DNA of 63,219 nucleotides from an uncultured Spirochaetaceae bacterium. GTDB taxonomy: Bacteria; Spirochaetota; Spirochaetia; SZUA-6; RPPD01. The translations under genes and the position numbers were made by a program. The stretch spans positions 6,930 to 70,148 of the forward strand of contig CAZEPL010000001.1 in NCBI GenBank assembly GCA_964514135.1, given 5' to 3'. Under the pieces are notes generated by a model. The model was not told the DNA's origin. It saw only the letters and a program-made list of their open reading frames with translations, and did no database searches. Positions 2,369 to 44,195 of this stretch are shown here, one piece after another (the stretch's first letter is position 1; every line of letters begins with the position of its first letter).

Positions 2369-3496
2369 ATGATCCATTTAGGTAAAACCGATTGTGGCCC
2401 CGAGGAAGTTGGCTACAATCCGGAAGCGTTGGAGAGTTTAGACAAACACTTTCAGGCACTCATCGATAAAGGCATGATTAATGCCGCAGGTTATCTGTTA
2501 TCCAAAGACGGTAAGGTCTTTGCCCATAGATCCATGGGCAAACAGTCCGTTTATGAGGACAAAGGTGAGTTTTTACCCGACAGCATCCGGCCCATCGCTT
2601 CGATTAGCAAGGTATTTACCACTACGGGTCTGCTGCAGCTGATGGAGCAGGGAAAGTTCTTTTTGCACCAGTCGGTTTCCGACTTTATAAAAGAGTTTGA
2701 TACCGACATGCACCGCTATATTACTATTTTTCAGCTCTTAACCCATACTTCGGGCTTAAAAGCCGATCCGGGTAACTTTTTTGAGCCTTATCCCGAAGAT
2801 TGGGGAAGCAGCCGGTGGACCAAAAAGAACTGGATTAAAAAAACATTGGCCGGACCGCTGCAGTTTAAGCCGGGAACAGTGTGGAATTACTGCTCCAAGG
2901 GTTTCAATATTTTGGCGGAGCTTATTGCCCGCTTGTCGGGAATGGATTACGATAAATACATAGAAGAGCATATTTTTAAGCCGCTGGGTATGAACTCCTC
3001 ATTTTTCTTCGTACCGGACAAATTTAAAGATAAAGTGAGCATGGTATCTCCATGGAATAAAGAGAAGTTAAAACATACACGCGATAAAATACCTTCACCC
3101 TCGCTATTGGGAGGAGGCGATATTTTATCCACTCTTTCAGATCTGTGGAAATTCGGTCAGATGATGTTAAACGGCGGTACATTTAATGGCAATAGAATAC
3201 TCGGCAGAAAAACAATTGAAGCGGCCACCAAACCGCAGGAAAAGGAGATCAAAGCGTATAACTGGCAGCCGCATATCTTCGACGACAGCTTTAAATGGAC
3301 CTGCGGCCTGGGCTGGGAACTGAATAAACACAAATTTTTAAGCGACGGCACCTACGACCACGAAGGTGCTGAGGGAGCAGGCTTGTTTATCGATCCCAAA
3401 GAGAACTTTATTTTTGCCGGTTTTTACCCTGATCCGGATTGGCATGGTGAAGCCTGGGTAAGCCCGCTGGCCATTGCCTGGTCGGGGATTGGATAA
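2369..3496 (+). CDS. Serine hydrolase, beta-lactamase/AmpC-like family
   Basis: SxxK (SISK), LLTHTSG, PGTVWNYCS (Y motif) and HEG motifs. Start moved to ATG 2369 after RBS GAAGGAG. Confidence 0.9.
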   Translation: MIHLGKTDCGPEEVGYNPEALESLDKHFQALIDKGMINAAGYLLSKDGKVFAHRSMGKQSVYEDKGEFLPDSIRPIASISKVFTTTGLLQLMEQGKFFLHQSVSDFIKEFDTDMHRYITIFQLLTHTSGLKADPGNFFEPYPEDWGSSRWTKKNWIKKTLAGPLQFKPGTVWNYCSKGFNILAELIARLSGMDYDKYIEEHIFKPLGMNSSFFFVPDKFKDKVSMVSPWNKEKLKHTRDKIPSPSLLGGGDILSTLSDLWKFGQMMLNGGTFNGNRILGRKTIEAATKPQEKEIKAYNWQPHIFDDSFKWTCGLGWELNKHKFLSDGTYDHEGAEGAGLFIDPKENFIFAGFYPDPDWHGEAWVSPLAIAWSGIG

Positions 3497-3554
3497 AACA
3501 GACGGGATTAACAGTATGATTATGCGTGTGGTGGCGCACAATATTTAATTTACA

Positions 3555-4385
3555 TTGAAAAGATTATTTAATTACATATTAAAACAACTCCGTATCATAA
3601 AAGCCGTGGCGTTTGTTACCTATAAAGAATGGGCCGCCTACCGCTCGCATATGCTCATCTCTTTATTTGTGGGTCCGGTTCAGTTTATCGTGCAGGTGTT
3701 TATCTGGCGGGCTGTATATACGAACCAGACGGTACTCAACGGTCTTACTCTGGAACAGATTATAACTTACTACGCGGTGGTAACCATTATTCACTACCTG
3801 GTTATGGACTTTGCCTCCTGGAACCTGCACATGCTCATTCGCACCGGCCGCTTTGTCACCTATATGATACGACCCCTGTCTCATCGCTTTTTTGCGCTTT
3901 CGCAAAAGGTGGGGCATCGCGCGCTGGGTTTCGTATGGGAATTTATACCGGTTTACTGCATGTTCTTTTTTGTGTTTCAGATAACGTTAATCCCGGCTCA
4001 TGTGGGCTGGGCGCTCTGTTCCGTATTTCTGGGTTTTATGATGCACTTTTTTTTAAATTACTGCATCGGGATTATAGGTTTTTGGCTGATAAGAGCCGAA
4101 GGTGTACGGAGAATGATCCTGATCTTCAGCATGCTGTTCGAAGGAGTGTTTATTCCTCTGGTGTTTTTCCCACTCCCTATACAAAAGATCCTCTTCTTCC
4201 TGCCCTTCCAGTTTGCCACGTATGTGCCTATCCGCGTGTTTATAGGTTCGTATGAGCTGGCTGGTATAAGCTTTGAGCTGCCGCATATTATTGCTCTTCA
4301 GGCCGCGGCCGTGGTTGTTATGTATTTTATGTCCGAGTTGCTCTGGCGCATGGGGATAAAAAAGTTTACGGGAGTGGGCATATGA
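3555..4385 (+). CDS. ABC-2 family transporter permease (DUF990-like)
   Basis: About six hydrophobic segments; IRTGRFVTYMIRP and GVFIPLVFFP motifs; in an operon with a second permease and an ATPase. Confidence 0.85.
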   Translation: MKRLFNYILKQLRIIKAVAFVTYKEWAAYRSHMLISLFVGPVQFIVQVFIWRAVYTNQTVLNGLTLEQIITYYAVVTIIHYLVMDFASWNLHMLIRTGRFVTYMIRPLSHRFFALSQKVGHRALGFVWEFIPVYCMFFFVFQITLIPAHVGWALCSVFLGFMMHFFLNYCIGIIGFWLIRAEGVRRMILIFSMLFEGVFIPLVFFPLPIQKILFFLPFQFATYVPIRVFIGSYELAGISFELPHIIALQAAAVVVMYFMSELLWRMGIKKFTGVGI

Positions 4386-5164
4386 GAGCACAAGTTAAGA
4401 TATACCTTACCGCCTTTAAAAACGCCCTTGCCACGCGCATGGCTTACCGGATCGATCTGTTTGTAAGCGCCTTTATTATGCTGGTGTTCGAGCTGATTAT
4501 TCCTCTGGTAACCTTTCTCATTTACAGCTCCGGAGCCGGTTTTCCGGGCTGGAAGTTTCATGAGGTCTTTCTGATTCAGGCTGTGTTTTTATTATCCAAA
4601 GGCATTACCTTTCCCTTTTTCGCGGGTATTGTCTGGAACACGATCACCCAAATCAGAGAGGGCACCTATGACCTGCTGCTGATCAAACCGCGCAATATCC
4701 TGTTTATGACCCTGCTTACAGGGATCGATATCGAAGACCTGGGCAAGCTGCTGGGCGGAATCGCCATATTTATATTCGCTGTCTCACAGGTGCCGGATCC
4801 GGGTGTGTTGAACTGGCTGGCCTTTGTGCTGCTGTTTGTCTGTTCCATAATCGTGTTTATATCTTTTTCCTTTATTATGGCGGCCAGCGGCTTTAAGTGG
4901 GTGGGGAATTTCAGGGTGTATGAAATATTCGAGGCTTTAACCAGTTTTGCCATGTATCCCATGAGTATTTTCTCCGAAGGAGTACAGATTCTGATTACCG
5001 CCTGTATTCCACTGGCGCTGATGGGATTTTTTCCGGCTTCGCTTATTTTGGGGAAGCCTCTGGACTGGCTTTTCATGAGCTTGGCAAGCTGTGTGTTTTT
5101 TTTGGTATTCAGTATTTTTTTCTGGTACAGAATGTTACGATCTTATACAAGCGCGGGTGGTTAA
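4382..5164 (+). CDS. ABC-2 family transporter permease (DUF990-like)
   Basis: IREGTYDLLLIKP and FAMYPMSIF motifs; ATGA overlap with the upstream gene. Confidence 0.85.
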   Translation: MRAQVKIYLTAFKNALATRMAYRIDLFVSAFIMLVFELIIPLVTFLIYSSGAGFPGWKFHEVFLIQAVFLLSKGITFPFFAGIVWNTITQIREGTYDLLLIKPRNILFMTLLTGIDIEDLGKLLGGIAIFIFAVSQVPDPGVLNWLAFVLLFVCSIIVFISFSFIMAASGFKWVGNFRVYEIFEALTSFAMYPMSIFSEGVQILITACIPLALMGFFPASLILGKPLDWLFMSLASCVFFLVFSIFFWYRMLRSYTSAGG

Positions 5165-5166
5165 CA

Positions 5167-6135
5167 ATGATTATTAGAGTGGAAAATCTTACAAAAACCT
5201 ATGTTACCTATAAAAGGGGTCATACCTTTTGGGAGACACTCAAAAGCATATTTAAACGTAAAAAGGTGCTTGTAGAGGCTCTGAAAAGCATCAGCTTTTC
5301 CATTGAAAAGGGAGAGCTGCTGGGTCTGATAGGTCCCAATGGTGCGGGCAAGTCCACCACTATTAAGATTCTTACCGGTATTCTTTTCCCCACTTCGGGT
5401 AAGGTTGAATCGTACGGCTATGTGCCCTGGAAGGCGCGTAAAAAATATGTTGCTCACATCGGAGTCGTGTTCGGCCAAAAGTCGCAGCTGGTGTGGGACA
5501 TACCGCCGCTGGACTCCTTTTATATGAACAAGGCCATATATGACATTAAAAGCGAAGATTACCAAAAACGCCTCAACCGGATGGTAAGCATGCTCAATGC
5601 AGAGGAGATCATTAAAAAGCCCACACGCCAGCTCTCGTTGGGAGAGAGGATGAGGTGCGAGTTCATTATGGCCATGCTGCATAACCCCAAGATTGTGTTT
5701 CTGGATGAGCCCACCATTGGCCTGGATGTGATTGCCAAGGAACAGATCCGCATCTTCATTAAAGAGATGAATGATCAGGGGGTAACCTTTATTCTCACCA
5801 CTCACGACATGGATGATGTGGAGCACCTGGCCCGGCGGGTGATTGTGATCAACCACGGCGAGATTGTGTTCGACGGCCGGATGGAGGCGCTGAAAAACTA
5901 TCTGGGCACAAAAAAAATTGTGTATTTGGCTACCCACGAAAAACTGCCCGCGCTTAAAAAGCGCGGTGTGGAAAATATCCGTATGCTCAGCGACTACGAA
6001 GCAGAGCTGGAGCTGGATCTTGCCAAGATAGAGCTGAACCGCTTTATAAAGACCATCAATGAAAAAAACACCATCCGCGACATCTCCATCCACGAGCCTT
6101 CCATAGAGACGGTGATTAAGAAGCTGTATGAGTGA
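5167..6135 (+). CDS. ABC transporter ATP-binding protein
   Basis: Walker A GPNGAGKST, signature LSLGE, Walker B VFLDEPT, H-loop TTH. Confidence 0.95.
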   Translation: MIIRVENLTKTYVTYKRGHTFWETLKSIFKRKKVLVEALKSISFSIEKGELLGLIGPNGAGKSTTIKILTGILFPTSGKVESYGYVPWKARKKYVAHIGVVFGQKSQLVWDIPPLDSFYMNKAIYDIKSEDYQKRLNRMVSMLNAEEIIKKPTRQLSLGERMRCEFIMAMLHNPKIVFLDEPTIGLDVIAKEQIRIFIKEMNDQGVTFILTTHDMDDVEHLARRVIVINHGEIVFDGRMEALKNYLGTKKIVYLATHEKLPALKKRGVENIRMLSDYEAELELDLAKIELNRFIKTINEKNTIRDISIHEPSIETVIKKLYE

Positions 6136-6136
6136 A
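6046..6136 (+). repeat. 91-bp direct repeat copy 1 (3' end of the ABC ATPase gene)
   Basis: Manual alignment to 7165..7255: 84/91 identical. Confidence 0.95.
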
Positions 6137-6238
6137 GGTGCTATAGATGTTAACTATTATTTTTTCCATAGATTGCTACACTTGACGTTCTATTTTTATA
6201 AAGTATATAACGTATTTATATATAAAATTATGTAGCAC

Positions 6239-6637
6239 TTATTGCGCTAACAATAAACCATATTTTATATAATCATTAAATATTTGATCTCTGCTTAAAA
6301 GATGATATTTTTTATTAATAGCTTCCCAAATAATTAACCTATCAAAAGGATCTTGATGTATATCACTAGGAAGTTTATAAAATGACGCAAATGTATTATA
6401 ACTAATATCTTCAATCAAATATCCATTTGATATTAAAATATCTGGAATTCTATCCGGAGTAATATTTTCCAATTCTAACTTATTTATCGCATATTTCAAG
6501 CTTATTTCAAAGAATGAAATATTACTTACGATTATATCATTATTTTCATCATCAATCAGCTGTATTTCATTTTTCTTTAATTTTAAACCATCAAATAATA
6601 TCCATAGTACAATATTTGTATCTAATAATATTTTCAT
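6239..6637 (-). CDS. vapC: PIN-domain toxin (VapC family)
   Basis: ILLDTNIVLW N-terminus, SFFEI, HQDPFDRLI, LLSRD acidic PIN motifs. Confidence 0.9.
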   Translation of the reverse strand: MKILLDTNIVLWILFDGLKLKKNEIQLIDDENNDIIVSNISFFEISLKYAINKLELENITPDRIPDILISNGYLIEDISYNTFASFYKLPSDIHQDPFDRLIIWEAINKKYHLLSRDQIFNDYIKYGLLLAQ

Positions 6638-6870
6638 AATGATAATAATTCTTTATCTGTTATTTTAAAGTTATCTATTATTTTATAACTTGCTTTTCCT
6701 TTTAAAATGCCTATCTTTCTCTTAGTCGGCTTATATTTTTTGTATGGTATAATAACTGCCAACTTCTCATGCTTTTTACCATATTCAATAGTTATTTCTT
6801 CACCATCTGATATTTTTTTTAATATCTGAGAAAGATTTGCTTTTAATTTTCCAATTGTAAATGTTTTCAT
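6634..6870 (-). CDS. Phd/YefM-family antitoxin
   Basis: MKTFTIGKLKANLSQILKKISDGEEITI...AVIIP, then RKIGILKG; 4-bp overlap with the PIN gene. Confidence 0.85.
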   Translation of the reverse strand: MKTFTIGKLKANLSQILKKISDGEEITIEYGKKHEKLAVIIPYKKYKPTKRKIGILKGKASYKIIDNFKITDKELLSL

Positions 6871-6979
6871 ATAAAAAATATATAGCTTTCTTGACTAGTT
6901 GTCAAGTTGTAAAATATTGAATATATATACTGTAAATTAGTATGTCATTGTTATCTACCAGATCCTTTATTATTCTTTT

Positions 6980-7099
6980 TTATCCATAGACCACAGTTCA
7001 AATTATTTCTTTATACATTTCATATTCGCGACTGGTTTTAACAATGATATCAACCGGGATAACTAAATCTTTGAGATAGCTGCTTACAACACGGTTTCT
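6980..7099 (-). pseudogene. Remnant of a minimal nucleotidyltransferase (MNT) C-terminus
   Basis: Manual translation RNRVVSSYLKDLVIPVDIIVKTSREYEMYKEII*TVVYG*, resembling the MNT tail IPVDIIV.T..E...Y...IGT..Y. Confidence 0.55.
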
Positions 7100-7164
7100 T
7101 TTTATTTTCTGTAATCATACACTTATAATATAAAAACTAATAATTCTCTGCAAGCAGACAAGTA

Positions 7165-7255
7165 ATAAAAACCATCAATGAAAAAAACACTATCCGTGAC
7201 ATCTCCATCCACGAGCCGCCCATCGAGACGGTGATTAAGAAGTTGTATGAGTGAA
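7165..7255 (+). repeat. 91-bp direct repeat copy 2 (orphan 3' end of the ABC ATPase gene)
   Basis: Encodes IKTINEKNTIRDISIHEPPIETVIKKLYE*, versus ...HEPSIETVIKKLYE* in the intact gene. Confidence 0.95.
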
Positions 7256-7346
7256 AGATCGGGGCGCCGGTTATTTCCTTTCAATACATGAAGCGGACAT
7301 TTCTATTGTGCTTTGGAAAAGATTCTTTAAAATAGCTAAAAATTGT

Positions 7347-7374
7347 TTGATTTTTTTTTTAAATGTTATATAAT
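7347..7374 (+). promoter_or_regulatory. Sigma70-like promoter with a T10 tract in the spacer
   Basis: TTGATT (7347-7352), 16 nt, TATAAT (7369-7374); T x10 at 7351-7360; RBS AGGAGG before ATG 7405. Confidence 0.55.
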
Positions 7375-7404
7375 TGTGTATTACAAATGAAACAGGAGGT
7401 TTGT

Positions 7405-8070
7405 ATGAAAAAAATTTTAGTATTAGCATGTGTACTGTGTTTATTTAGCATGAGTGCATTTGCCCAGGATATCAGTATCAGCGCCGGAGCTGAGGTAATG
7501 TTTGCGATGCATACACTAGGATATCATATCGATGTGGACGAGGATAATTTAGCATACATTGACTACAATGATCAAGTTGCCGCAATCGGAGTGTGGTTAG
7601 ATTTTACCTATGTTCGACTATCAGCTGATTTTACTATGTTCGTAGATGGACAAGTACATCATAAATTAATATTTGGAGGTGCTACTCTTGATGACGATGA
7701 TTATGATTATGTAGATGGTGTCGGATATAATAGTATCCTGATTACCTTAGTAGGGAAATATCCGTTTGATGTGGGTGGTATGATAATATACCCAGAAATT
7801 GGTGTAGCCTATGATCTTATGATTCACTATGATGCAGATGGCGATGGAGAAAGCGATTTAGGAGATCCGGGCCTTGATGATCTCAGCGACTTCTATATAG
7901 TTGGTGGAGTGGGAATGAGTGTGCCATTAGATCCGGTTATTATTAATTTAGAAGTCCAGTTTGGATATAATCTCACAGGAAATTCTGACGCAGATTATGA
8001 TCCGGTTGACGAAGAAACCTACCCTGGCTGGTTTTTGGGTATTAAAGCCGGTGTAGGTATTGCGTTTTAA
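7405..8070 (+). CDS. Outer-membrane beta-barrel protein
   Basis: Signal peptide ending AFA-QD; alternating strands; C-terminal GIKAGVGIAF with terminal Phe. Confidence 0.8.
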   Translation: MKKILVLACVLCLFSMSAFAQDISISAGAEVMFAMHTLGYHIDVDEDNLAYIDYNDQVAAIGVWLDFTYVRLSADFTMFVDGQVHHKLIFGGATLDDDDYDYVDGVGYNSILITLVGKYPFDVGGMIIYPEIGVAYDLMIHYDADGDGESDLGDPGLDDLSDFYIVGGVGMSVPLDPVIINLEVQFGYNLTGNSDADYDPVDEETYPGWFLGIKAGVGIAF

Positions 8071-8088
8071 AGAAATATTCTTTTATAG

Positions 8089-8123
8089 AAAAAGAGGCTG
8101 TTATGTAACAGCCTCTTTTTTTT
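8089..8123. terminator. Intrinsic terminator, probably bidirectional
   Basis: AAAAAGAGGCTGTT-atgt-AACAGCCTCTTTTT followed by further T. Confidence 0.85.
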
Positions 8124-8274
8124 GATATTTCGGTAACAGGGCTTCATCAGGATCAATGTCTGATATGCTAATAACTGATAGTTGCATCTATAGAGATTAT
8201 TAATTATTTTCCAAAAATAACCTCCCTTGACTTCCCCAATTCAGAAAGTATATAAAGTATTCATATATAAGATT

Positions 8275-8793
8275 ATGTATTTGCCGCTAAAAAAGTTATA
8301 TTTTTGTTTTATTATCCTCATTTTATTAGTTGCTTCCCTCTCCGCTCAAGAAAATACAATTTTGAAAACACGTAAAATCTTACTTCTGCCCACTCAGGAC
8401 GCCACAAATAATGAAGCGTATAAGCACCTGCGTATGTATATATTCAACGTATTAAAAAGTAATTTACTAAAATATGAAAATTTAGAAGTTATTTTCTTTA
8501 ATGATAATTTTTCCGTATCGCTGTATGACAAAGATTTTGAATCCATAGTAAAAGGGCTGAGTGAACAATACACTGTGGAATCGTTTATCTTCGGAGAGTA
8601 TTTTGTGGACAACCGGGGTCTGCATGTATTCGTTAATGTCTGGGATGCGGCCAGTTTGCGGGTAAAAAACCTTTTTATGAAAAGCATGCCCGCGGACCTG
8701 GATATGCTGGAAAATATAGAAGGTATTACCTTAATGCGTATTATAGTTTTGGTCCTCAATGGGATGACGTTAAAAGCCGTCTCCATTTTGTAA
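8275..8793 (+). CDS. Exported protein with a TolB-N/CsgG/FlgO-like fold, probably truncated or internally deleted
   Basis: Signal peptide ending LSA-QE; KILLLP...D...GEYF...VFVNVWDA pattern; implausible C-terminus. Confidence 0.5.
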   Translation: MYLPLKKLYFCFIILILLVASLSAQENTILKTRKILLLPTQDATNNEAYKHLRMYIFNVLKSNLLKYENLEVIFFNDNFSVSLYDKDFESIVKGLSEQYTVESFIFGEYFVDNRGLHVFVNVWDAASLRVKNLFMKSMPADLDMLENIEGITLMRIIVLVLNGMTLKAVSIL

Positions 8794-8831
8794 TCGAGCC
8801 AATTGAATAAAAGATTAGTTTGAGAAATACT

Positions 8832-8864
8832 CACAGCCCCGGCCGCGTACCGGGGTTTTTTTAT
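8832..8864 (+). terminator. Intrinsic terminator, copy 1 of a 33-bp repeat
   Basis: CCCCGG-ccgcgta-CCGGGG then T7; 28/33 identical to 9685..9717. Confidence 0.8.
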
Positions 8865-8947
8865 CTACTTTTAAACGTTAATTATTCTTAAAGCTCTCAT
8901 TTTTTAATCCATTATGAAAGAGCTGGAATGGACGGAAAATCGTTACC

Positions 8948-8976
8948 TTGACAAACATAATTACGATATTTATAAT
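8948..8976 (+). promoter_or_regulatory. Consensus sigma70 promoter of the HEPN-MNT module
   Basis: TTGACA-N17-TATAAT. Confidence 0.8.
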
Positions 8977-8984
8977 TCACACTA

Positions 8985-9388
8985 TTGAAAGATGCTATCC
9001 AACAAAAAATATCTTACTGGATTGAATCAGCTGATTCCGATTTTGAAGCTGCCAAAATATTATTAATTAATGATAAATATTTACAATCACTTTTTTACTG
9101 AAATCTTGTAATTGAAAAAGCACTCAAAGCATATTATTGGTATATAAATGAAAAAGAACCTCCCTATACTCATAATCTAATTATTCTTTCATCTAAAAGT
9201 AAAATAGATAAAATAATGAGAGAAGAACACAAAAGGACAATCGACATTTTAATGCCTTTAAATATAAAAGACGATATCCCGATGAGGAAAAGGAACTATT
9301 AAAGGTATATACTAGTGATAAAATAAAAGAAATCTTTGATAAAACAGAGGAATTATATAAATGGATTCTGAAGCTATTGAAAAAATAA
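8985..9388 (+). pseudogene. HEPN-domain protein pseudogene
   Basis: Manual translation (M)KDAIQQKISYWIESADSDFEAAKILL...LFY*NLVIEKALKAYY...PPYTHNLIIL...LNIK, then a frameshift to RYPDEEKELL...WILKLLKK*. Confidence 0.8.
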
Positions 9389-9669
9389 AAAAATATGCTG
9401 ATATTATTACGGCAAAACATCCTGTAAAGATGATCATTCTTTACGGCTCATATGCAAAAGGAATTGAAAAAAAAGACAGTGACATAGATGTTGCTGTTGT
9501 AATAAATCAAATCGATAACAAGTATTTTGAATTAACTGCTGATTTATATAAAGCAGTAAGAGAGGTTGATGAAAGAATAGAACCCAATCTGATCTTTATT
9601 AAAAACAATCGAAGCGGTTTTTTAGAAAGTATTTTAAAATACGGAAAGGTAATTTATAAAAAGACATAA
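9361..9669 (+). CDS. Minimal nucleotidyltransferase (MNT) antitoxin-like protein
   Basis: ILYGSYAKG...DSDIDVAVV and GKVIY motifs. Confidence 0.9.
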   Translation: MDSEAIEKIKKYADIITAKHPVKMIILYGSYAKGIEKKDSDIDVAVVINQIDNKYFELTADLYKAVREVDERIEPNLIFIKNNRSGFLESILKYGKVIYKKT

Positions 9670-9684
9670 TTTCCTGAACAAACC

Positions 9685-9717
9685 CACGGCCCCGGCCACA
9701 CACCGGGGCTTTTTTAT
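9685..9717 (+). terminator. Intrinsic terminator, copy 2 of the 33-bp repeat
   Basis: GCCCCGG-ccacaca-CCGGGGC then T6. Confidence 0.8.
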
Positions 9718-9905
9718 TGCTTTTTAAATCAAAATAGCATAATAATTGGAATAGGACGATCAATAGTTCCGGTAGCTTTATGAGAGTAATGATAAAAACT
9801 ACATAAAGCTCGCGAGGATCACAGAACCCTCCGTGTCCTCCGTGAGCTTTGTGTGAGCCGAATTCGTAAACTTTGGCCACTGCTTATTATATAAAAGGAG
9901 TACCT

Positions 9906-10328
9906 ATGAAATCTGTTTTTGCACTTTTTTTGCTGTTTCTTCTGCTTGGCACCGCAGCGTGCCGGGATGAGAACAAGGAAACTGCGCCGCTGCTTGAGAA
10001 TGTCCAGTCGAATGAACCGTTTGCTTTTTTTAATGACATAGATTCGGTCCGCGGTAAGACAGCGGATGATCCGCCGGCTACTTTTATCGCCGAACTATCT
10101 CTGGGTTATAAAAAGGGAGATACACAAACACAATCGGAGTTAATAGAGAAAAAACCGCAGATTCAAAATACCATATTAAAGTATTTAAGCGGTAAAAAAG
10201 CCGACGAGCTGCATCCTAAGAATTTCGAGACCATGCAACAAGAACTGGTAACTGAAATAAACAGGCTGTTAACCAAAGGAAAACTGCGCGTTTTATTGTT
10301 TCAGGAACTCCAGGCCTTTGCACCCTGA
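9906..10328 (+). CDS. fliL: Flagellar basal body-associated FliL-family lipoprotein
   Basis: Lipobox-like LGTAAC; FIAELSLGY...ELIEKKPQIQNTILKYLSGK...EINRLLTKG FliL pattern. Start after AAGGAG. Confidence 0.75.
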   Translation: MKSVFALFLLFLLLGTAACRDENKETAPLLENVQSNEPFAFFNDIDSVRGKTADDPPATFIAELSLGYKKGDTQTQSELIEKKPQIQNTILKYLSGKKADELHPKNFETMQQELVTEINRLLTKGKLRVLLFQELQAFAP

Positions 10329-10418
10329 TGAGGATTTCTCCATACCAGTCGTGCGCACCACTCATACAATTTTAAAGTATCACTTGAAATTTGTATGAAT
10401 ATATTTTATCATATACTT

Positions 10419-11573
10419 ATGATTAAACGGCAGCAGCAGGTAGAGCTATTAAATCTATCCAAACAATATCCTGTGATTACAATTACCGGCCCTCGACAGG
10501 CCGGTAAAACAACCCTTGCACAAATGACATTTCCTGAATACCAGTACTGTAATCTTGAGTTGCCAGAGTTGAGGAGCCTCGCTAAAAAAGACCCAAAAGC
10601 GCTTTTTCACTCTTTTCCCGCTCCTGTTATTATTGATGAGATCCAGCGGGTGCCGGAGCTTCTCTCTTATATCCAGGTTTTCGCAGACAGGACTGAAAAA
10701 AAAGGTCAGTATATTTTGACAGGCAGTCATCAAATGCTTCTGCTTGATTCAATTACTCAGTCATTAGCCGGCAGGACGGCTTTGTTAAACCTTTTTCCTC
10801 TTTCCATTAAAGAACTTGCTGATGAAGGCATTATTTATTCATATGATGAATATATCTACAAAGGATTTCTTCCTCGTATATACAAAGATAACTTGGAACC
10901 TACCAGAGCCTACAGGAATTATTTTCAAACCTATGTGGAAAGAGATGTCAGGCAACTGGTAAATATCAAAAACATAACGTATTTTGAGAATTTCATCCGT
11001 ATGCTCGCGGGGCGCGCGGGGCAGTTGTTGAATTTATCTTCCCTTGCAAATGATATTGGAATATCCAGCACCACTCTTTCCCAGTGGCTCTCTGTGCTTG
11101 AGGCATCATTTATTATATTCCGCATAAAACCATTCTTTAAGAATTTCGGTAAAAGGATTGTTAAATCTCCCAAGCTGTATTTTACGGATATAGGGCTCGC
11201 ATCATATTTAATCGGTATAAATGATATTAGGCAGGTAAACAGAGACCCCCTGCTTGGCGGTTTGTTTGAAAATCTTGTAGTTATGGAGGCCGTGAAAGCA
11301 AGAATGAATCAAGGACTTGATCCTGATCTGTATTTTTTCAGAGATAATAATCAGCATGAAGTGGATCTTATATATAAACGAGGGAGGGAATTGATTCCGA
11401 TAGAAATCAAATCTGCCATGACCTATAATAATGACCTTATCAAAAATGTATTGTACTTTAATAAAATCAATAAATCACCGGGGGCATATCTTGTGTATAA
11501 TGGAGATTTGGTATTGAAGCAGGGAGATATTGATATAATAAATTTTAAGGATACTTATAAGATTTTTATCTAG
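10419..11573 (+). CDS. AAA_14 ATPase with DUF4143 domain
   Basis: ITGPRQAGKTT, IIDEIQR, ILTGS, KSPKLYFTDIG, HEVDLI and IEIKS (PD-(D/E)xK-like tail). Confidence 0.9.
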   Translation: MIKRQQQVELLNLSKQYPVITITGPRQAGKTTLAQMTFPEYQYCNLELPELRSLAKKDPKALFHSFPAPVIIDEIQRVPELLSYIQVFADRTEKKGQYILTGSHQMLLLDSITQSLAGRTALLNLFPLSIKELADEGIIYSYDEYIYKGFLPRIYKDNLEPTRAYRNYFQTYVERDVRQLVNIKNITYFENFIRMLAGRAGQLLNLSSLANDIGISSTTLSQWLSVLEASFIIFRIKPFFKNFGKRIVKSPKLYFTDIGLASYLIGINDIRQVNRDPLLGGLFENLVVMEAVKARMNQGLDPDLYFFRDNNQHEVDLIYKRGRELIPIEIKSAMTYNNDLIKNVLYFNKINKSPGAYLVYNGDLVLKQGDIDIINFKDTYKIFI

Positions 11574-11696
11574 GCCAATAATGTGAGCCCTGTAAAAATG
11601 CAGGATACGGAACAGGAGATGCTGCCTGTTATTAATAAGCTGCTGACCAAAGGCCGGGTGAGAGTTGTGCTTTTCAGGGAGTTCTATGTGTTTTAA
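11574..11696 (+). pseudogene. Orphan C-terminal fragment of a FliL homolog
   Basis: ANNVSPVKMQDTEQEMLPVINKLLTKGRVRVVLFREFYVF* aligns with FliL ADELHPKNFETMQQELVTEINRLLTKGKLRVLLFQELQAFAP*. Confidence 0.75.
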
Positions 11697-11880: not shown

Positions 11881-12462
11881 ATGAGTAATGAACAGCAGAG
11901 TACCGCTGTAGATAACTCCATGAGGTTGGGAAAGTTTGAATTCATGGCTATGAATAATTTTTTTAGGCGCTGGCTACATAAGCATATAGAATTCAAAATA
12001 TTTTATAAGCTGCTCCTTAAACACCGGGTCGATCTTCGGGGAAAAATAATTATGGATGCCGGCTGCGGCTCCGGGTACAGCACACAGCTTTTAGTACAGA
12101 CATATGAGCCTGAAAAAATTATTGCGTTTGATTATATGCCGGAACAAATTGCTTTGGCAAAAAAACGCGGTTTAAATGCGGATTTTTCAGTAGGGGATAT
12201 GACAAATATAAAGCTTAAAGACGGCGTATGTGATGCCGTGTTTATTTTCGGAGTGCTTCATCATATTCCTGCTTGGGCAAAAGCCCTTTGTGAGGTAGCA
12301 CGCACCTTAAAACCGGGTGGGCATTTACTGCTGGAAGAACCTCATTTTGGATTTAGTTGGCAGGAGCTGGAAGCGGAACTAAGAATCGTCGGATTTCGGA
12401 TTGTGGATCAAAAGCATTTCTCGTTTGGTTATTTTCGCAGCTATTTATGCAGAAAAATCTAA
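11881..12462 (+). CDS. Class I SAM-dependent methyltransferase
   Basis: MDAGCGSG motif I, FDY, VGDM, LHHIP, LKPGG. Confidence 0.9.
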   Translation: MSNEQQSTAVDNSMRLGKFEFMAMNNFFRRWLHKHIEFKIFYKLLLKHRVDLRGKIIMDAGCGSGYSTQLLVQTYEPEKIIAFDYMPEQIALAKKRGLNADFSVGDMTNIKLKDGVCDAVFIFGVLHHIPAWAKALCEVARTLKPGGHLLLEEPHFGFSWQELEAELRIVGFRIVDQKHFSFGYFRSYLCRKI

Positions 12463-12607
12463 TGAATTGAATGCTATTATTGCTGAGCTTCTTGCAAAAA
12501 TGTTATTTTTGCAAGAAGCTCCTAAAATGGAAATTGCTAAATTATTATGGTATAAAGAATAAGTATTTTACTAACTTAATATATTTTGAGTTTTGCAATT
12601 TCCTCTG

Positions 12608-13234
12608 CTATACAAAGATATATCTGGCCAGCATATGTACCAGCTCATCTATCAAACTTTCTTGATTAATGTTTTCATATAATTTTTGGGAATGTTTCAC
12701 GATATGGACGATTTGATCAATGGTTGTCACAATCAGGACCGCGGCTGTTTCGTAATCGTTAATTTTCGTTAGTGCTCCGAACCGCTTCAAGATTTGTTCC
12801 GTACTCTTAAAACTCTTGGTTTCCCATATGCGGTGTGCGAGCGCTACATCGGGATCTGAATGCATTATTGAGCCGATCTCCTCATGCAGGTCGGGGAAGA
12901 TATCATGAGCTTTTAAAACCGGTTTGATAAAAGAGCGTACGAGCCGGTATTTGTCTTTCGGAATAAACTCAACAGTGTCCATAAGGGTGAAAAGATTTTT
13001 AAAAACCTGCTCAAAATGGATATTAACAACCTCTAAAAAAAGATCCTTTTTATCCTGAAAATAGGCATAAAACGTGCCAATAGAAACACCCGCCTGGTCG
13101 GCGAGTTCTTTGGAGTTTGTTTTATAGAATCCTTTTTCTGAAAACAGCTTAAATCCCGCGTCAATTATCTTCTGTTTCTTTTCGACGGAGCGTTCCTGTT
13201 GAGGCGTACGTTTTGTTTTATTCTCGGGGTTCAT
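12608..13234 (-). CDS. TetR/AcrR-family transcriptional regulator
   Basis: KIIDAGFKLFSEKGFYKTNSKELADQAGVSIGTFYAYFQDKKDL. Start placed at ATG 13234, because the longer ORF overlaps promoter DNA. Confidence 0.9.
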   Translation of the reverse strand: MNPENKTKRTPQQERSVEKKQKIIDAGFKLFSEKGFYKTNSKELADQAGVSIGTFYAYFQDKKDLFLEVVNIHFEQVFKNLFTLMDTVEFIPKDKYRLVRSFIKPVLKAHDIFPDLHEEIGSIMHSDPDVALAHRIWETKSFKSTEQILKRFGALTKINDYETAAVLIVTTIDQIVHIVKHSQKLYENINQESLIDELVHMLARYIFV

Positions 13235-13285
13235 AATTATTCTTAAGTAAAATTTATATAGTTGCCGCTTGTTTGTCAATGAAAA

Positions 13286-13458: not shown

Positions 13459-15930
13459 ATGAAAAACAATAAAATCGGCCGCGGGGCATCAAGAATCGGT
13501 ATGAATGTTATCGTAAAGTACAAATGGATTTTTTTCCTTGGCATCGCTATGCTGGTTGTGTTGGGTTATCTGGGTTTGGATAAAATCGTAATGGATAATT
13601 CCAACGAATCTATGTTCGAAAAGAGCGATGAGGTTAATATTAAGCTCCAGCAGTTTCATGAGATCTTCGGTAATGAAGATTTTGTGTTTGTCATGGTAGA
13701 GGCGGATAATATATTTACCCCGGAGGCCCTCGCTTACATAAAGCGCCTGAGTGATGATCTGGAGCAGAATCTGCCCTTCGCCAAAAGAGTAACATCCGTG
13801 ACCCACATGGAATACCTTGATGTTGTAGACGGCGATCTTTATGTTGATGATTTAATTGCCGCTGACATACCGGAAGATCCTGCCGAGCTTAATCAAATCA
13901 AAAACAAGTTGCTGGCAAAACAAGTATATGTGGATCGTCTGCTGTCCAAGGATGGCAAAAAAACCGGCATCTTTATCGAGTTTGAAACCGTACCCGAAAC
14001 TGTATACGTTCCGCTGCTAAAAACAGGGGCAGGCCCGCAAGAAACCGCTATGCAGGGGGATATTTATTTTGAAGAGGAACTTGAGGATAAAAGCGCGTAT
14101 TCAAATATAGTGGAACCTAAAAAACTTATTGCGCCTGCTCTGGATTTGATTTTGCAGCGAAATCAGTATGATGGCTGCATAGTCACGGCAACGGGTATGC
14201 CCGTAACCGAATATAAAATCGATGAGACCATTATCTCGGAAACCGGCAGAACCTTTCTCATCACTTTACTCATCTGCATCATACTCCTGTTTGCTATTTT
14301 TCGCTTTCCTGCGGCTGTGATGGCCCCGGTTATTGTGATTATTGCCACTACCATTATTACTTTTGGACTTCTGGGCTGGCTGGGTATTCCGCTTTCATCT
14401 TTTATTGTCATCCTGGCCTGTTTACTGTTGATCATAGCGGTTAGTTATTCCATTCACATCATCAATCACTTTAAAAGGAATTATAAACTGACCGGTAAGC
14501 GTAAAGAATCTGTTCGCTATGCTTATGAGCATGCAAGCTGGCCCTGCTTACTTACTGCGCTTACCACCGCTGTGGGGTTTGCTTCCTTTATTTTTGTACC
14601 TATGGTTCCACTGCGCAACCTGGGTATGGCCAGCGCTCTGGGTGTGCTTATCAGTTATATCCTGGTTATGATCCTGATACCGATCTTTCTCTCTTTTGGT
14701 AAAGATAAAACAATAACAATCGGGGCCAAGGCTAAGAAAGATGCAGCCACTACCGATAACACACGCTCAAGCCGCTTTATGCAGAAGTGGGCGGATCGAG
14801 TGTTGAAGAGTGCTCTGCCCGTAGGTGTTATAAGTGCTGCTCTATTATTAATAATACCTTTTTTCATTTCACAAATCGAAGCGGATTCCGATTTCATACA
14901 CCTGTTCGGAGATCGCAATGAATTTGTACGTGATGCCAAGCATGTAACCAATAATCTGGGCGCACTTTACTCTTATGAGGTGTTAATTGAGCTGCCTGAA
15001 GCGGAGATGGCCCAGGAACCGGAAGTGTTGGGAGCGCTTGAAGATCTGGAACAGCTCATTGATGGTTATGATACAACCAAGCGCACAATGAGTATTAATG
15101 ATCTTCTGAAAGATATCAATATGACCATGAACAATAACGATAAAAGTTATTACGCGATCCCTGATAATAGAGAGCTTATTGCGCAGTATCTGCTTTTATA
15201 CGATATGTCGGGAGGAGGCGAACTGGCAAACTGGGTTGACTACAACAACCAGTATTTGCGCCTTTCCGTACAGGTAAAACGTTCTACTACAACTCTCCGT
15301 GAGGTCTTTAAAGAGATTGAGGCTTTTGCCCAAAAGAGATTCCCTTTTAATGCCAAGGTGACGATTACGGGCGATATGTCCATTTTCATAAAATCGGTGG
15401 GAGCCCTGGTTGACGGCCAGATTATTTCAATTTTTATAGCTTTTTTAGGGATCTCCTTGATGATGATGCTTGTGCTGCGCTCTATCCCTGTGGGCTTATT
15501 ATCCATGATACCTAATGTGCTGCCTGTGCTCATTGTTGCCGGATTGATGGGGCTTTTTAACATCACTTTGAACATGATGACCATAGTAGTGGCGCCACTT
15601 TTAATTGGTATCGCAGTTGATGATACCGTGCATTACTTTGTGCACTTTAAAGAAGAGTTTAAAACACGCAGGTCTTACCGTCGGGCCAACAGGGAGACCT
15701 TCAGGAAGATCGGCTGGGCGCTGGTATTTACTTCGCTAATCCTGATGATAGGTTTTTCCGCCTTTTTGTTCACAAGTATCGACAGTATTATCCAGCTGGC
15801 CGTTCTGCTTACCATAGGTATAGGCGTGGCACTGGCAGCGGATTTGTTGATTACTCCGGTGCTGTTTGTATTCTTAAAACCATTTGGTAAAGAAGAGGAT
15901 AAAAAAAACAACAAGCAGCTTGTCGCTTAA
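13459..15930 (+). CDS. MMPL-family (RND superfamily) transporter
   Basis: Two membrane repeats with AVSYSIHI and GIAVDDTVHY motifs and large periplasmic loops. Confidence 0.9.
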   Translation: MKNNKIGRGASRIGMNVIVKYKWIFFLGIAMLVVLGYLGLDKIVMDNSNESMFEKSDEVNIKLQQFHEIFGNEDFVFVMVEADNIFTPEALAYIKRLSDDLEQNLPFAKRVTSVTHMEYLDVVDGDLYVDDLIAADIPEDPAELNQIKNKLLAKQVYVDRLLSKDGKKTGIFIEFETVPETVYVPLLKTGAGPQETAMQGDIYFEEELEDKSAYSNIVEPKKLIAPALDLILQRNQYDGCIVTATGMPVTEYKIDETIISETGRTFLITLLICIILLFAIFRFPAAVMAPVIVIIATTIITFGLLGWLGIPLSSFIVILACLLLIIAVSYSIHIINHFKRNYKLTGKRKESVRYAYEHASWPCLLTALTTAVGFASFIFVPMVPLRNLGMASALGVLISYILVMILIPIFLSFGKDKTITIGAKAKKDAATTDNTRSSRFMQKWADRVLKSALPVGVISAALLLIIPFFISQIEADSDFIHLFGDRNEFVRDAKHVTNNLGALYSYEVLIELPEAEMAQEPEVLGALEDLEQLIDGYDTTKRTMSINDLLKDINMTMNNNDKSYYAIPDNRELIAQYLLLYDMSGGGELANWVDYNNQYLRLSVQVKRSTTTLREVFKEIEAFAQKRFPFNAKVTITGDMSIFIKSVGALVDGQIISIFIAFLGISLMMMLVLRSIPVGLLSMIPNVLPVLIVAGLMGLFNITLNMMTIVVAPLLIGIAVDDTVHYFVHFKEEFKTRRSYRRANRETFRKIGWALVFTSLILMIGFSAFLFTSIDSIIQLAVLLTIGIGVALAADLLITPVLFVFLKPFGKEEDKKNNKQLVA

Positions 15931-19206: not shown

Positions 19207-19863
19207 CTAAAAATCAACAATCGCATAATAAGCAAGCTTGGGTTTATGGTTATTGTCAGAAAGCAGGGGATAGTTGTTCCTGATCGTAGGATGGGTATCC
19301 AATCAGGTGGCATCGTCCGACACTCCCCAAAAAGTGACGCTTGTTATTCGGCTGTTGTTGGCTTTGAACAGCCTGAATAACTCTTTGTAACGCAGTGCCT
19401 GCTGCTGTTCAAGCTGCACTGTAAATTCTTTTTGCGCTTCCCAGCTCTTTGTGGACCAGTTATCATTAGTATAAACGGAAATATCCAGCTCACTGATTTT
19501 TATTTCAAGGTCGGCGGCCGCGATTTTATTTATTGCGTTTCGGATATCGTTCATTTTTGGCCAGTTCAAATTCCAATGTCCCTGCAGGCCTATTCCGTCA
19601 ACACGAATGCCCTTGGAGCGCAGCCACTTTACCATGGCCAGAATTTTTGTCAGTTTTGACGGGACTGTTACGTTATAATCATTGTAATACAGCTTGGCAG
19701 CAGATCCTCTGGCCGCCAAAGCGTCCTGTGTGTATTTAAAAGCCCAGAAAATATACTCTTCATTCCGGAAGATGCTATACCAGTCGGAGCCTTCACTGCC
19801 GTCGCGGCATGTTTTGCTCTCTGTATCGGAGACCGCTTCGTTTACCACATCCCAGTTATCCAT
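19207..19863 (-). pseudogene. GH10 endo-1,4-beta-xylanase remnant
   Basis: WDVVNE, LYYNDYN, DGIGLQGH, ISELD, TFWG. N-terminal barrel missing; TGA at 19303 where W is expected, continuing LDTHPTIRNNYPLL..KPKLA, then a frameshift. Confidence 0.85.
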
Positions 19864-43802: not shown

Positions 43803-44195
43803 ATGAAAAGATTGAAAACATGGACAAAAAAAGCGGTTGGTTATTTTGAGGGGCTGATTTCGATATTCGTTAATCTTCTCCTGTTCGGCGCCAAACTATG
43901 GGTGGGAGTACTTTTTAACTCCATAGCCATGATAGCCGATGCCTGGCATAGTCTTTCCGATAGTTTAACCTCTATTGATGAAATAAAGAATTTGGTACTG
44001 GAAGCATCGGACAAAATATCGGACAGTCATCATTTTCATTTCCACAAATACGGGGATCATTCGGAATTAACCTTTCATATCAGGGTGGTGTCGAATATGC
44101 ATGTAAAAAAAGCTCATGAAATTGCCAATACTATAGAGCAGAAGATAAAAGCCGTATACGGTTTTGAAACCACAATCCATATAGAACCGGATTAA
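43803..44195 (+). pseudogene. Cation diffusion facilitator with most of the TM domain deleted
   Basis: NLLLFGAKL..SIAMIADAWHSLSDSLTS joined directly to the C-terminal domain IDEIK...HFHKYG...AHEIAN...TIHIEP. Confidence 0.85.

Follow-up and report, generated by a model that had tools for sequence, protein, structure and literature searches.

Gene content and layout of the islet

The DNA analysed here, a stretch of 63,219 nucleotides referred to as the window, comes from an uncultured salt-marsh spirochaete population (Spirochaetales). Between an ABC-transporter operon on the left and a TetR/MMPL pair on the right it carries a variable islet of 6.5 kb, extending from the stop codon of the ABC ATPase (6135) to that of TetR (12608). 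The data consist throughout of short-read assemblies from uncultured populations. The islet structure was reproduced to 100% by contigs from four independent runs and by several JGI assemblies, and every junction was spanned by exact contigs from the four runs; assembler confusion was excluded, since the longest exact run common to both copies of the ABC gene end is only 20 nt. The following features were assigned (L numbers denote relatives and strain variants):

5167–6135, plus strand: ABC transporter ATPase, intact parent gene and left core flank (Pfam ABC_tran, E = 3.5e-26)
5836–6136, plus: divergent 'X-type' ABC 3' tract, linked to the vapBC cassette (21 mismatches to L126/L077)
6046–6136, plus: A1, in-gene ABC 3' end (91 nt, 92% identical to 7165–7255)
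6141–6234, plus: B1, relic promoter and ATG of the gene-8275 family (94 nt, 73–75% identical to 8188–8279)
6239–6637, minus: vapC, PIN toxin (Pfam PIN, E = 1.9e-8)
6634–6870, minus: vapB, Phd/YefM antitoxin (Pfam PhdYeFM, E = 7.6e-8)
6877–6905, minus: vapBC promoter TTGACA-17-TATATT (11/12), beside the palindrome CTTGACTAGTTGTCAAG
6930–7164: cargo tail, entirely unlike the tail of strain variant L122
7165–7255, plus: A2, displaced ABC 3' end, the resident ancestral end (pairs with A1)
7256–7404, plus: ancestral ABC–OMP spacer, with the vestigial old OMP start TTGGAAAAGATTCTTTAA and then a new AT-rich promoter
7405–8070, plus: TDE1717-like outer-membrane beta-barrel gene, OMP (NCBIfam outer_TDE1717, E = 1.7e-14, below the curated cutoff)
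8188–8279, plus: B2, promoter and start of gene 8275 (pairs with B1)
8275–8793, plus: gene 8275, mosaic copy, truncated at the 3' end, of a 245-aa gene located elsewhere (L125)
8829–8875, plus: T1, upstream terminator copy (47 nt, 79–81% identical to 9682–9728)
8948–8976: HEPN promoter (12/12)
8985–9388, plus: HEPN toxin pseudogene, broken by one frameshift and one stop codon; L077 has an intact version (Pfam HEPN, E = 2.9e-22)
9361–9669, plus: MNT nucleotidyltransferase, MntA-like antitoxin (Pfam Polbeta, E = 2e-15)
9682–9728, plus: T2, downstream terminator copy (pairs with T1)
9906–10328, plus: FliL-like lipoprotein gene (Pfam FliL, E = 7e-10; missing in L001)
10200–10319, plus: F1, last 40 FliL codons
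10384–10412: promoter of the DUF4143 ATPase
10419–11573, plus: AAA_14/DUF4143 ATPase, candidate defence gene PDC-S01 (Pfam DUF4143, E = 1e-49)
11574–11696, plus: F2, orphan FliL C-terminal fragment (pairs with F1)
11881–12462, plus: class I methyltransferase module (Pfam Methyltransf_11, E = 1e-22)
12608–13282, minus: TetR regulator, right core flank (Pfam TetR_N, E = 1.4e-16; syntenic in L001)
13459–15930: MMPL/RND gene, beyond TetR

The initial annotation had described three consecutive recombinase-free cassettes, in each of which AT-rich cargo with its own promoter is trailed by a displaced copy of the host 3' end. The three repeat pairs are real, lie exactly at the positions listed and go beyond chance, but they are not contiguous, because OMP, gene 8275 and FliL stand in between. 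A1 and A2 were matched by window-wide blastn with E = 4e-31 (29 aa at 97% at the protein level), the hairpin CCCCGG-N7-CCGGGG occurred in the 63 kb only in T1 and T2 (expected 0), and the resemblance between F1 and F2 (11574–11693) was detected at the protein level only, with ~42% identity over 40 aa (E = 3e-8). One paralogue pair aside, window-wide blastn returned no other significant direct repeats. A search for orphan 3' ends, proposed earlier for the whole genome and run here on the C-termini of all window ORFs, gave such ends for the ABC ATPase and FliL only. All three of the orphan-end pairs in the 63 kb are gathered in a span of 5.6 kb, where each encloses a self-promoted module; there are none elsewhere.

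Other parts of that description fared differently. No recombinase, transposase or competence domain was found in the ~58 window ORFs scanned, and all three modules have promoters of their own. The cargo is AT-rich in the case of vapBC (22–23% G+C; 22–25% in the whole ABC-bracketed stretch vs 45–50% in the ABC operon) and of HEPN-MNT (~27%), but not notably so for the DUF4143 ATPase (38–40%). The view that toxin-antitoxin islets are built gene by gene proved too narrow, since the cargo at the ABC-end site also includes a lipoprotein, an allele of the OMP and a gene from elsewhere in truncated copy. Fragment types other than the three repeat pairs are present in the islet as well.

The displaced ABC end and its relatives

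Orthologues of the ABC ATPase are 91% identical in L001 and 97% in L077 at the amino acid level. The displaced end A2 matched the functional end of L077 at 86/90 positions vs 83/90 for the window's own gene end, and it continues into the ABC–OMP spacer common to L001 and L077 (assigned by comparison with L001, 11028 onward, and L077), with collinear sequence downstream. A1 has derived changes of its own, including Pro to Ser. Judged from these alignments, A2 together with the OMP gene represents the ancestral synteny, and the in-gene ABC end would have arrived with the cargo.

Empty sites for the vapBC cassette were observed in L077, L126 and L001, all of which run directly from ABC to OMP. 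L126 differed from the window by 2 mismatches over 3590–5835 and was 100% identical to L077 from 5719 on. A recent homologous crossover within the ABC gene, in the interval 5719–5835 and hence 300–417 nt ahead of the stop, has swapped the occupied and empty states; vapBC is linked to X-type ends, which are also found in L122, another vapBC carrier, and the empty site to L-type ends. Across the ABC operon, the window and L077 diverge in patches, with values between 0 and 14 per 100 nt, which we read as frequent homologous recombination.

The insert with vapBC measures 1,119 bp, and vapC is frameshifted in strain variant L120. The vapBC module is 97.8% identical between the window and L122, yet its tail and right joint differ, with the alignment diverging at 6929/6930. 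On its minus strand, the tail in the window contains a short remnant that resembles coding sequence, with no Pfam confirmation. Repeated capture from one donor predicts nested tails; those of the window and L122 are unrelated from 6930 on, so that one has to invoke either different donors or a second event of remodelling. Displaced ABC ends have four starts, at ~6046 (window), ~6005 (L122) and ~5925 and ~5890 (both L002). Taken together, L002 and L100 give the order ABC, lipoprotein, ABC-end, OMP and neighbours, ABC-end, lipoprotein, ABC-end. Compared with the gene end, the gene-proximal copy of L002 was identical at 189/191 positions and the distal copy at 233/240, so the newest copy adjoins the intact gene.

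OMP and gene 8275

The mature part of the OMP is highly allelic between strains (the L077 allele could not be aligned by blastn past 7463), and both alleles were found together in the same samples. Gene 8275 matches L125 only over 8346–8717 (91%), homology ending at 8717/8718. Its promoter plus ATG forms a second repeat pair, B1/B2 (6141–6234 vs 8188–8279), which had been missed; in L125, the full-length gene is preceded by a promoter of the B1 type. Illegitimate scars are seen where gene 8275 is cut at 8717 and where the B1 relic is cut after ATGTA by the vapBC module, and the vestige of the old OMP start and, in L077, a deletion of 937 bp are further ones.

The terminator and FliL pairs

T1 and T2 enclose the HEPN pseudogene with its promoter and MNT, the latter matching NCBIfam MntA (E = 5e-15, below cutoff) and PADLOC PDC-S09. 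The terminator had been taken for the native end of a host gene, which does not hold, as gene 8275 is a mosaic and truncated itself. This hairpin type is confined to the islet (window, L077 with three copies, and L002), and terminator-type hairpins trail four different modules, inside the islet only. The terminator family could itself be a small mobile or recombination element.

The DUF4143 ATPase (PADLOC PDC-S01, E = 5e-96) has the 937-bp deletion internally in L077 and is degraded in L002. The FliL pair had been regarded as the trace of its capture. However, an orthologous FliL relic adjoins TetR in L001, which has neither FliL nor DUF4143. By its distribution the relic predates the split from L001 and is older than the initial annotation implied; the third pair therefore cannot be tied to the DUF4143 insertion, and the cassette may be an old deletion scar instead. 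The methyltransferase module is also missing in L001 and has no flanking duplicate.

Additive one-ended recombination as the probable mechanism

On balance, the islet is probably a recombination hotspot, where additive one-ended events resembling homology-facilitated illegitimate recombination (HFIR), each with a homologous anchor and an illegitimate joint, were followed by reshuffling through ordinary homologous recombination. Self-promoted modules (vapBC, the OMP allele, the truncated lipoprotein-type gene, HEPN-MNT, FliL, the DUF4143/PDC-S01 ATPase and the methyltransferase) would have been added in succession by host recombination, without an element-encoded recombinase. In the clearest event, the vapBC insert, DNA of a related strain would have paired by homology within the ABC gene, carrying the donor's ABC 3' end and, downstream of it, the relic promoter, vapBC and the tail. 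Because its far end would have been joined illegitimately, the resident ABC 3' end (7165–7255) would have been kept and pushed downstream, still attached to the OMP gene. In the mirror case, which is also conceivable, a right-anchored OMP-bearing fragment would have brought a stub of the donor's ABC gene. Islet states, once formed, would then pass between strains via ordinary homologous crossovers in the ABC gene.

One homologous anchor and one illegitimate joint are supported because homology on the ABC-gene side is seamless, whereas the right side is variable in its 5' starts and tails. The capture route suggested by the initial annotation is thereby strengthened, as it is by the empty sites of the vapBC cassette and the L126 crossover; the FliL case speaks against it. 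The illegitimate nature of the right joint and the mode of DNA uptake we infer from the natural variants, as we do the mechanism as a whole, no donor sequence and no joint with both parent sequences having been found. The terminator and FliL pairs would presumably have arisen in the same way as the ABC pair.

Alternative explanations

A reading that we consider unlikely, although it is the strongest competitor, assumes no common mechanism but unrelated scars of deletion, tandem duplication and paralogy in an intergenic region rich in junk: an old second FliL gene would be the source of the FliL fragment, local tandem duplication that of the terminators, and insertion would apply to the ABC pair only. 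The presence of the L001 FliL relic without any cargo fits, as do the widely different divergences of the pairs (92%, ~80% and ~62% nt), the many other fragment types, the unflanked methyltransferase module and the L002 copy c3, for which simple tandem duplication suffices. Against it stand the concentration of the three orphan-end pairs around self-promoted modules and the occurrence of the same event type in a second lineage, again at the ABC end; the terminator-type hairpins also trail their four modules only within the islet.

A Campbell-type insertion-duplication is decidedly improbable. Here a small circle with an ABC 3' piece and cargo would be integrated by a single RecA crossover in that piece; the circle could pop out of another array by inter-repeat recombination, direct repeats would flank the cargo, and arrays would be shuffled by excision and re-integration at any copy, like an integron without integrase. 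The final repeat-cargo-repeat structure would be the same, and the identity of the proximal repeat in L002 would permit RecA recombination. The lipoprotein unit of L002/L100 trails both the full ABC gene and a truncated copy, but one tandem duplication explains this order equally well. A1-specific variants are located at both ends of the 91-nt repeat, and a circle with homology from 6046 cannot bring the X-type tract because the tract reaches ~210 nt upstream of the repeat start (5836–6045). The contigs contained no back-joints or circles. One apparent back-joint was rejected as a spurious 18–21-nt match.

Least probable of all are decayed integrative elements, that is, successive tyrosine/serine-integrase elements at the ABC 3' end, each with a replacement end, which would have lost their integrases by later deletions and left CIME-like remnants mobilisable in trans by an intact element: intact end, cargo and displaced end do form the classical attL/attR signature, the ABC gene end was targeted at least three times in two lineages, and homology between the copies ends at the stop codon in both, but the four 5' limits of the displaced copies and a right border varying among strains with the same cargo make a site-specific integrase unlikely, no common core or border motif exists, cargo units of 0.7–1.1 kb leave no space for integrase remnants, no integrase was found in the 63-kb window or in the L001, L002 and L077 islets, and the terminator and FliL ends would each require an element of their own. 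An unknown integrase acting in trans, previously offered as a second route, is disfavoured by the lack of a fixed core, of a common border motif and of a window integrase, and by the tiny cargo.

Comparison with known systems

The islet has features in common with several systems. Phage 21 and e14 target the 3' end of icd and ICESt1 that of fda, each bringing a replacement end, and the CIMEs at fda in Streptococcus thermophilus are integrase-less derivatives without recombinases. As there, intact and displaced gene ends flank the cargo as direct repeats; the islet differs in having no fixed crossover core and no integrase remnants, variable repeat limits, a cargo of ~1 kb and several different 'att' sequences side by side. 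Integron arrays consist of small cassettes, often toxin-antitoxin, with the newest nearest the anchor, and CALINs are recombinase-free. The islet is likewise a recombinase-free array of small modules with toxin-antitoxin genes, newest nearest the anchor, but no attC-like sites were found in it, its hairpin is an intrinsic terminator with an 8-bp stem and without R'/R'' boxes, IntI is absent, and its cassettes have their own promoters and include gene fragments.

In Rhs, CdiA and T6SS effector-immunity loci, C-terminal displacement yields orphan arrays (Jackson 2009; Poole 2011, PMC3150448; PMC5361080). The islet resembles them in that an intact gene receives, at its end, a new 3' end together with the genes that follow it, and old 3' ends accumulate downstream, the newest beside the gene. 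Its replacement end, however, is near-identical housekeeping sequence with no new toxin domain, the cargo (toxin-antitoxin, defence, surface proteins) is unrelated to the parent gene, and the displaced ends have no conceivable function. The same recombination model was proposed for T6SS and Rhs arrays (Kirchberger 2017, PMC5361080). As outlined in PMC2884548 and PMC5361080, HFIR joins foreign DNA through one homologous anchor (de Vries & Wackernagel 2002; Prudhomme et al. 2002; Meier & Wackernagel 2003), with microhomology at the joints as a hallmark. Set beside those accounts, the islet shares the anchor (the ABC gene), the seamless left side, the arbitrary, variable right joint, the lack of a recombinase and related donors; it differs in that the process is deduced from natural variants, not measured, and that resident sequence is duplicated, not deleted.

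In hotspots free of mobile genetic elements, recombination takes place at the core genes on their flanks (Oliveira et al. 2017, PMC5635113), and core defence hotspots have been described (Johnson et al. 2023, PMC10250203). The islet is similarly a variable stretch between conserved core genes, rich in defence and toxin-antitoxin genes and devoid of integrase or transposase, and L126 demonstrates directly that the core gene beside it undergoes homologous recombination. For those hotspots, scar-free double homologous replacement was inferred, whereas the islet keeps scars that indicate additive one-ended events.

Setting and content of the islet

The source population consists of uncultured Spirochaetales of salt-marsh sediments, and the metagenome runs containing the sequence are likewise from salt marshes. 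Among genome records, a Spirochaetales MAG (L001) is closest, with an ABC ATPase of 91% amino acid identity. The locus is arranged as follows:

5167-6135, ATPase gene, the last of an ABC-2 transporter operon (left flank of the islet)
islet, first half, in order: vapC/vapB, a copy of the ABC 3' end, an outer-membrane protein (OMP) gene, gene 8275, a HEPN pseudogene with MNT
islet, second half, in order: a FliL-like lipoprotein gene, an AAA_14/DUF4143 ATPase gene, a FliL C-terminal fragment, a methyltransferase gene
12608-13282, minus strand, TetR gene (right flank)
from 13459, MMPL/RND gene, beyond TetR

The ABC-to-TetR interval is 6.5 kb in the window and only ~900 bp in L001, where the syntenic flanks enclose one outer-membrane beta-barrel gene and a short FliL-like relic. 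Content between the ABC and TetR/MMPL flanks varies among the window and the compared contigs L001, L002, L003 and L077. The AAA_14/DUF4143 ATPase corresponds to the PADLOC candidate defence gene PDC-S01 (E = 5e-96).

A near-consensus promoter stands in front of each module, as the initial annotation had stated for the cargo. Its description of the cargo as AT-rich holds for the vapBC and HEPN-MNT modules (22-27% G+C, compared with 45-50% in the ABC operon) but not for DUF4143, which at 38-40% G+C is not notably AT-rich. Pfam scans of the ~58 window ORFs revealed no recombinase, transposase or competence domains, in keeping with cassettes said to be recombinase-free, and no tRNA or known RNA was found as an integration target. 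No flanking duplicate accompanies the methyltransferase module. A 37-nt palindrome (12485-12521), single-copy in the window and absent from the other loci compared, lies between the methyltransferase and TetR stops (12484-12606). Its word depth is ~250-fold above the surroundings and it occurs with many different AT-rich flanks in four metagenomes; it is a high-copy dispersed repeat in the community.

Repeat pairs of the islet

The three repeat pairs claimed previously were all real. The in-gene ABC ATPase 3' end (A1, 6046-6136) and its displaced copy (A2, 7165-7255) share 92% identity over 91 nt (window-wide E = 4e-31). The two terminator copies (T1, 8829-8875; T2, 9682-9728) are ~80% identical over 47 nt, and their hairpin CCCCGG-N7-CCGGGG has these two sites only in 63 kb, where none is expected. 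The FliL C-terminus in the gene (F1) and the orphan fragment (F2) resemble each other at protein level only (42% over 40 aa, E = 3e-8). A further pair had been overlooked, namely B1 (6141-6234) and B2 (8188-8279), comprising the promoter and ATG of gene 8275. Beside these, the window contains no significant direct repeats except one paralogue pair, and when every ORF C-terminus was scanned against the window, orphan ends were found for the ABC ATPase and FliL only.

An assembly artefact was ruled out: exact contigs from four independent runs and several JGI assemblies span every junction between 5000 and 12512, and no exact match between the ABC copies exceeds 20 nt.

The vapBC cassette is an insertion relative to near-isogenic alleles

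In L077 (ABC ATPase 97% identical at amino acid level) and in L126 the ABC gene is directly followed by the OMP gene, without vapBC, so that the window carries an insert of 1,119 bp. Collinearity with L001 and L077 extends over A2 and the spacer that follows, and A2 resembles the functional L077 gene end (86/90) more than the gene end in the window itself (83/90). The combination of A2 and the OMP gene is thus ancestral, whereas A1 arrived with the cargo. The cargo begins 4 nt past the ABC stop codon with B1, a relic promoter and ATG of a gene-8275-family gene, which the vapC stop region cuts after ATGTA; the boundary of the vapBC module lies ~24 nt upstream of its -35 box.

The vapBC of strain variant L122 is 97.8% identical to that of the window, yet its tail is unrelated to window 6930-7164, and its displaced ABC end starts ~41 nt further upstream. 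In L120, vapC is frameshifted. Collection scans yielded no donor contig continuing past the cargo tail, and no precise A1-A2 excision joint was found in eight runs. A nucleotidyltransferase-like remnant suspected in the cargo tail failed confirmation.

Origin of A1 and B1 by tandem duplication of A-OMP-B was rejected, since the pairs are too unequal (92% vs 75%) and extra events would be needed. Comparison also ruled out that the L077 ABC end is a single-crossover chimera of A1 and A2.

Homologous exchange within the ABC gene

Between L126 and the window there are 2 SNPs in 3590-5835 and 21 in 5836-6100; over its last 688 nt, starting at 5719 and with the empty site included, L126 is 100% identical to L077. 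This switch from window-like to L077-identical sequence indicates a recent crossover within 5719-5835, 300-417 nt ahead of the ABC stop, where occupied and empty alleles part on the same backbone. The divergent ABC 3' tract linked to vapBC is present in L122 too, the second carrier of the module. Along the operon, the window and L077 diverge unevenly (0 to 14 per 100 nt); together with the L126 crossover, this mosaic places recombination in the flanking core gene.

Both OMP alleles occur together in the same samples. Between the window and L077, the OMP signal peptide and flanks are 87-97% identical, and the mature part and ~100 nt behind it are unalignable (OMP gene, 7464-8213); a variant with a 79-nt indel (7612-7692) was seen in two runs. 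The OMP is a strongly allelic surface protein.

Displaced ABC ends in a second lineage

In the L002 lineage (ABC ATPase 83% identical at amino acid level) the end of the ABC gene was affected once more. Here the ABC gene is followed in turn by a lipoprotein gene, a displaced end, OMP, a DUF4143 remnant, an AbiEii-like nucleotidyltransferase and another displaced end. The proximal displaced end, 191 nt long, is nearly identical to the gene end (189/191), and the second is older (233/240) and starts differently again. The 5' limits of the four displaced copies are all different (window-equivalent ~6046, ~6005, ~5925 and ~5890), and the four have no border motif in common.

L002 9148-13510 and L100 1-3333 together read in cyclic order (ABC end, lipoprotein, ABC end, OMP, DUF4143 remnant, nucleotidyltransferase, ABC end, lipoprotein), which suggests either a ~3.3-kb tandem duplication or a lipoprotein unit at two positions in different strains. 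Directly after the lipoprotein stop and ahead of a terminator hairpin, L002 11154-11207 weakly matches the OMP C-terminus (61% over 18 aa, E = 5e-4) and may be an OMP 3' relic brought by the lipoprotein cassette. L001 contains a 65-nt direct repeat (230-293 and 3140-3204, 85%) matching the C-terminal region of ORF 2947-3252, which may be another orphan gene end.

Other scars of the islet

Gene 8275 matches a 245-aa gene of another context (L125) over 8346-8717 only (91%); as homology ends at 8717/8718, the gene is a truncated mosaic. A vestigial old OMP start lies upstream of the present OMP promoter. HEPN is broken in the window and intact in L077; DUF4143 has lost 937 bp by deletion in L077 and is a degraded gene in L002. 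No empty site for the HEPN-MNT cassette was found, and homologue searches with FliL and gene 8275 returned almost only the queries themselves.

Terminator-type hairpins stand behind four modules (the L077 OMP allele, gene 8275, MNT and the L002 lipoprotein) and only within the islet, so they may be a displaced OMP-type terminator copied by the same process as the gene ends; possibly the hairpin is an element of its own. A genome-wide REP-like element was rejected, as there are 2 copies in 63 kb, none in 21 kb of L001, and no copy outside the islet.

The initial annotation had interpreted all three cassettes as captured by 3'-end replacement, each with a displaced host end behind it. The one-ended, additive pattern bears this out in part, but the FliL pair cannot be attributed to the DUF4143 insertion: an orthologue of F2 adjoins TetR in L001, a genome with neither FliL nor DUF4143, so the relic is older than the split. 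That the FliL pair represents unrelated scars is plausible. Overall, the earlier observation was essentially right and its interpretation is partly supported.

DUF4143 homologues and gene decay

We also rejected DUF4143 as a self-mobile, target-duplicating gene, since the flanking repeats at two homologue loci (L113, L114) are two copies of an IS200-like or MITE element. At L113, from a soda-lake genome, element copies with ends AATTTCGGGACACAATGA (2925-3900 and 5315-5632) flank a homologue of 66% amino acid identity, and the upstream copy contains an IS200-like transposase remnant. No flanking repeats were found in L111 and only a weak 47-nt match in L109. The motif ACTTGAAAT(T/A)TG precedes DUF4143 genes in the window (10380-10395), L002 (12120-12135) and L113 (3955-3970); as these three genomes are distant, the promoter apparently moves together with the gene.

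Elsewhere in the window, GH10 xylanase fragments lie at 19303-19863 and 25973-26566 (minus strand). An intact 378-aa gene in L001 is the orthologue of the first, which lacks the 5' part; the second is a paralogue, and the 389-aa L001 gene adjoining the orthologue is missing from the window; the region looks like a deletion scar, not a cassette. A histidine kinase is apparently split into PAS, PAS and HATPase ORFs (40658-42600), and a cation-efflux gene is reduced to 130 aa comprising the N-terminal 40 residues and the dimerisation domain (43803-44195). The genome contains many decaying genes.

Proposed one-ended recombination and alternative origins

The asymmetry of the islet (a seamless left border with a donor-type tract, an arbitrary and strain-variable right border, no recombinase) fits additive one-ended recombination, akin to homology-facilitated illegitimate recombination. 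In such an event, the ABC gene or, in the mirror case, the right flank would serve as homologous anchor for DNA of a relative; the other end of that DNA would be joined illegitimately, and the resident sequence would stay as a stub instead of being deleted. Selection would retain only events that keep the ABC gene intact, which would explain why homology between the copies ends at the stop codon. Later, ordinary homologous recombination would reassort whole islet states, as in L126. On one side, the ABC gene is continuous into A1 with a donor-type tract at 5836-6136, bounded by the crossover interval 5719-5835; on the other, the four 5' limits differ, as do tail and joint between the window and L122, whose unrelated tails require an extra event in the model. 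The model, put forward for these cassettes by the initial annotation and earlier for T6SS and Rhs arrays (PMC5361080), is the preferred though tentative explanation of the locus.

Campbell-type insertion of circles would likewise produce a flanking repeat, but is disfavoured because the donor tract reaches ~210 nt past the repeat and the contigs showed neither circles nor back-joints. The single candidate for a circular or tandem form, a joint of 11852 to 6631 with loose ends around vapB, consisted of 18-21-nt chance matches to unrelated contigs.

The variable limits, the tiny cargo and the absence of any integrase speak against decayed integrative elements and against the integrase acting in trans that the initial annotation had offered as an alternative. 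Site-specific elements and their integrase-less derivatives share an identical crossover position, whereas the repeat starts here vary from ~6046 to ~5890, and neither window Pfam scans nor the islet ORF lists of L001, L002 and L077 contain an integrase or a remnant of one. Among the structures inspected, the only recurrent one is the terminator hairpin with its T-run. It lacks the GTTRRRY core of attC sites and is absent from the vapBC and DUF4143 modules, and there is no IntI; this would separate the islet from integrons and recombinase-free cassette arrays (CALINs). Nor do terminal inverted repeats bound any module as in transposons, IS elements or MITEs: the islet duplicates vary from 47 to 245 nt, with no fixed-length target-site duplication, and the repeats flanking DUF4143 homologues elsewhere are unrelated MITE copies and not target duplications. 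The locus works like an Rhs/CDI C-terminal displacement array without being a member, as the parent is an ABC ATPase, its replaced end and the old one share 92-99% identity, and there is no polymorphic toxic tip.

It is quite improbable, in our estimation, that the duplicated ends and terminators are portable recombination sites of an integrase-free cassette array, driven by RecA only or by a trans recombinase recognising the islet-specific hairpin. In the RecA variant, units between near-identical copies would be excised as circles, inserted anew at any other copy and passed between strains. If true, the islet would be a functional integron analogue gathering defence and toxin-antitoxin cassettes beside a housekeeping gene.

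Implications for hotspot assembly

The locus is a hotspot free of mobile genetic elements (MGEs), with unusually legible scars. For such hotspots a double-crossover model has been put forward (PMC5635113), to which the one-ended additive route adds; how MGE-free core hotspots arise is explicitly an open question (PMC10250203). The locus bears on the movement of small toxin-antitoxin and defence modules without a recombinase of their own. Because double homologous replacement is traceless, natural evidence on the route is scarce. The traces kept here comprise occupied and empty alleles that are near-isogenic, a crossover mapped to the flanking gene, age-ordered displaced ends and a strain-variable right border. 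As natural evidence on the assembly of toxin-antitoxin and defence islets the locus is moderately interesting; it provides a usable natural case for one-ended, anchor-mediated gene addition to hotspots and suggests a genome-wide signature of the process, orphan 3' ends downstream of their parent gene.
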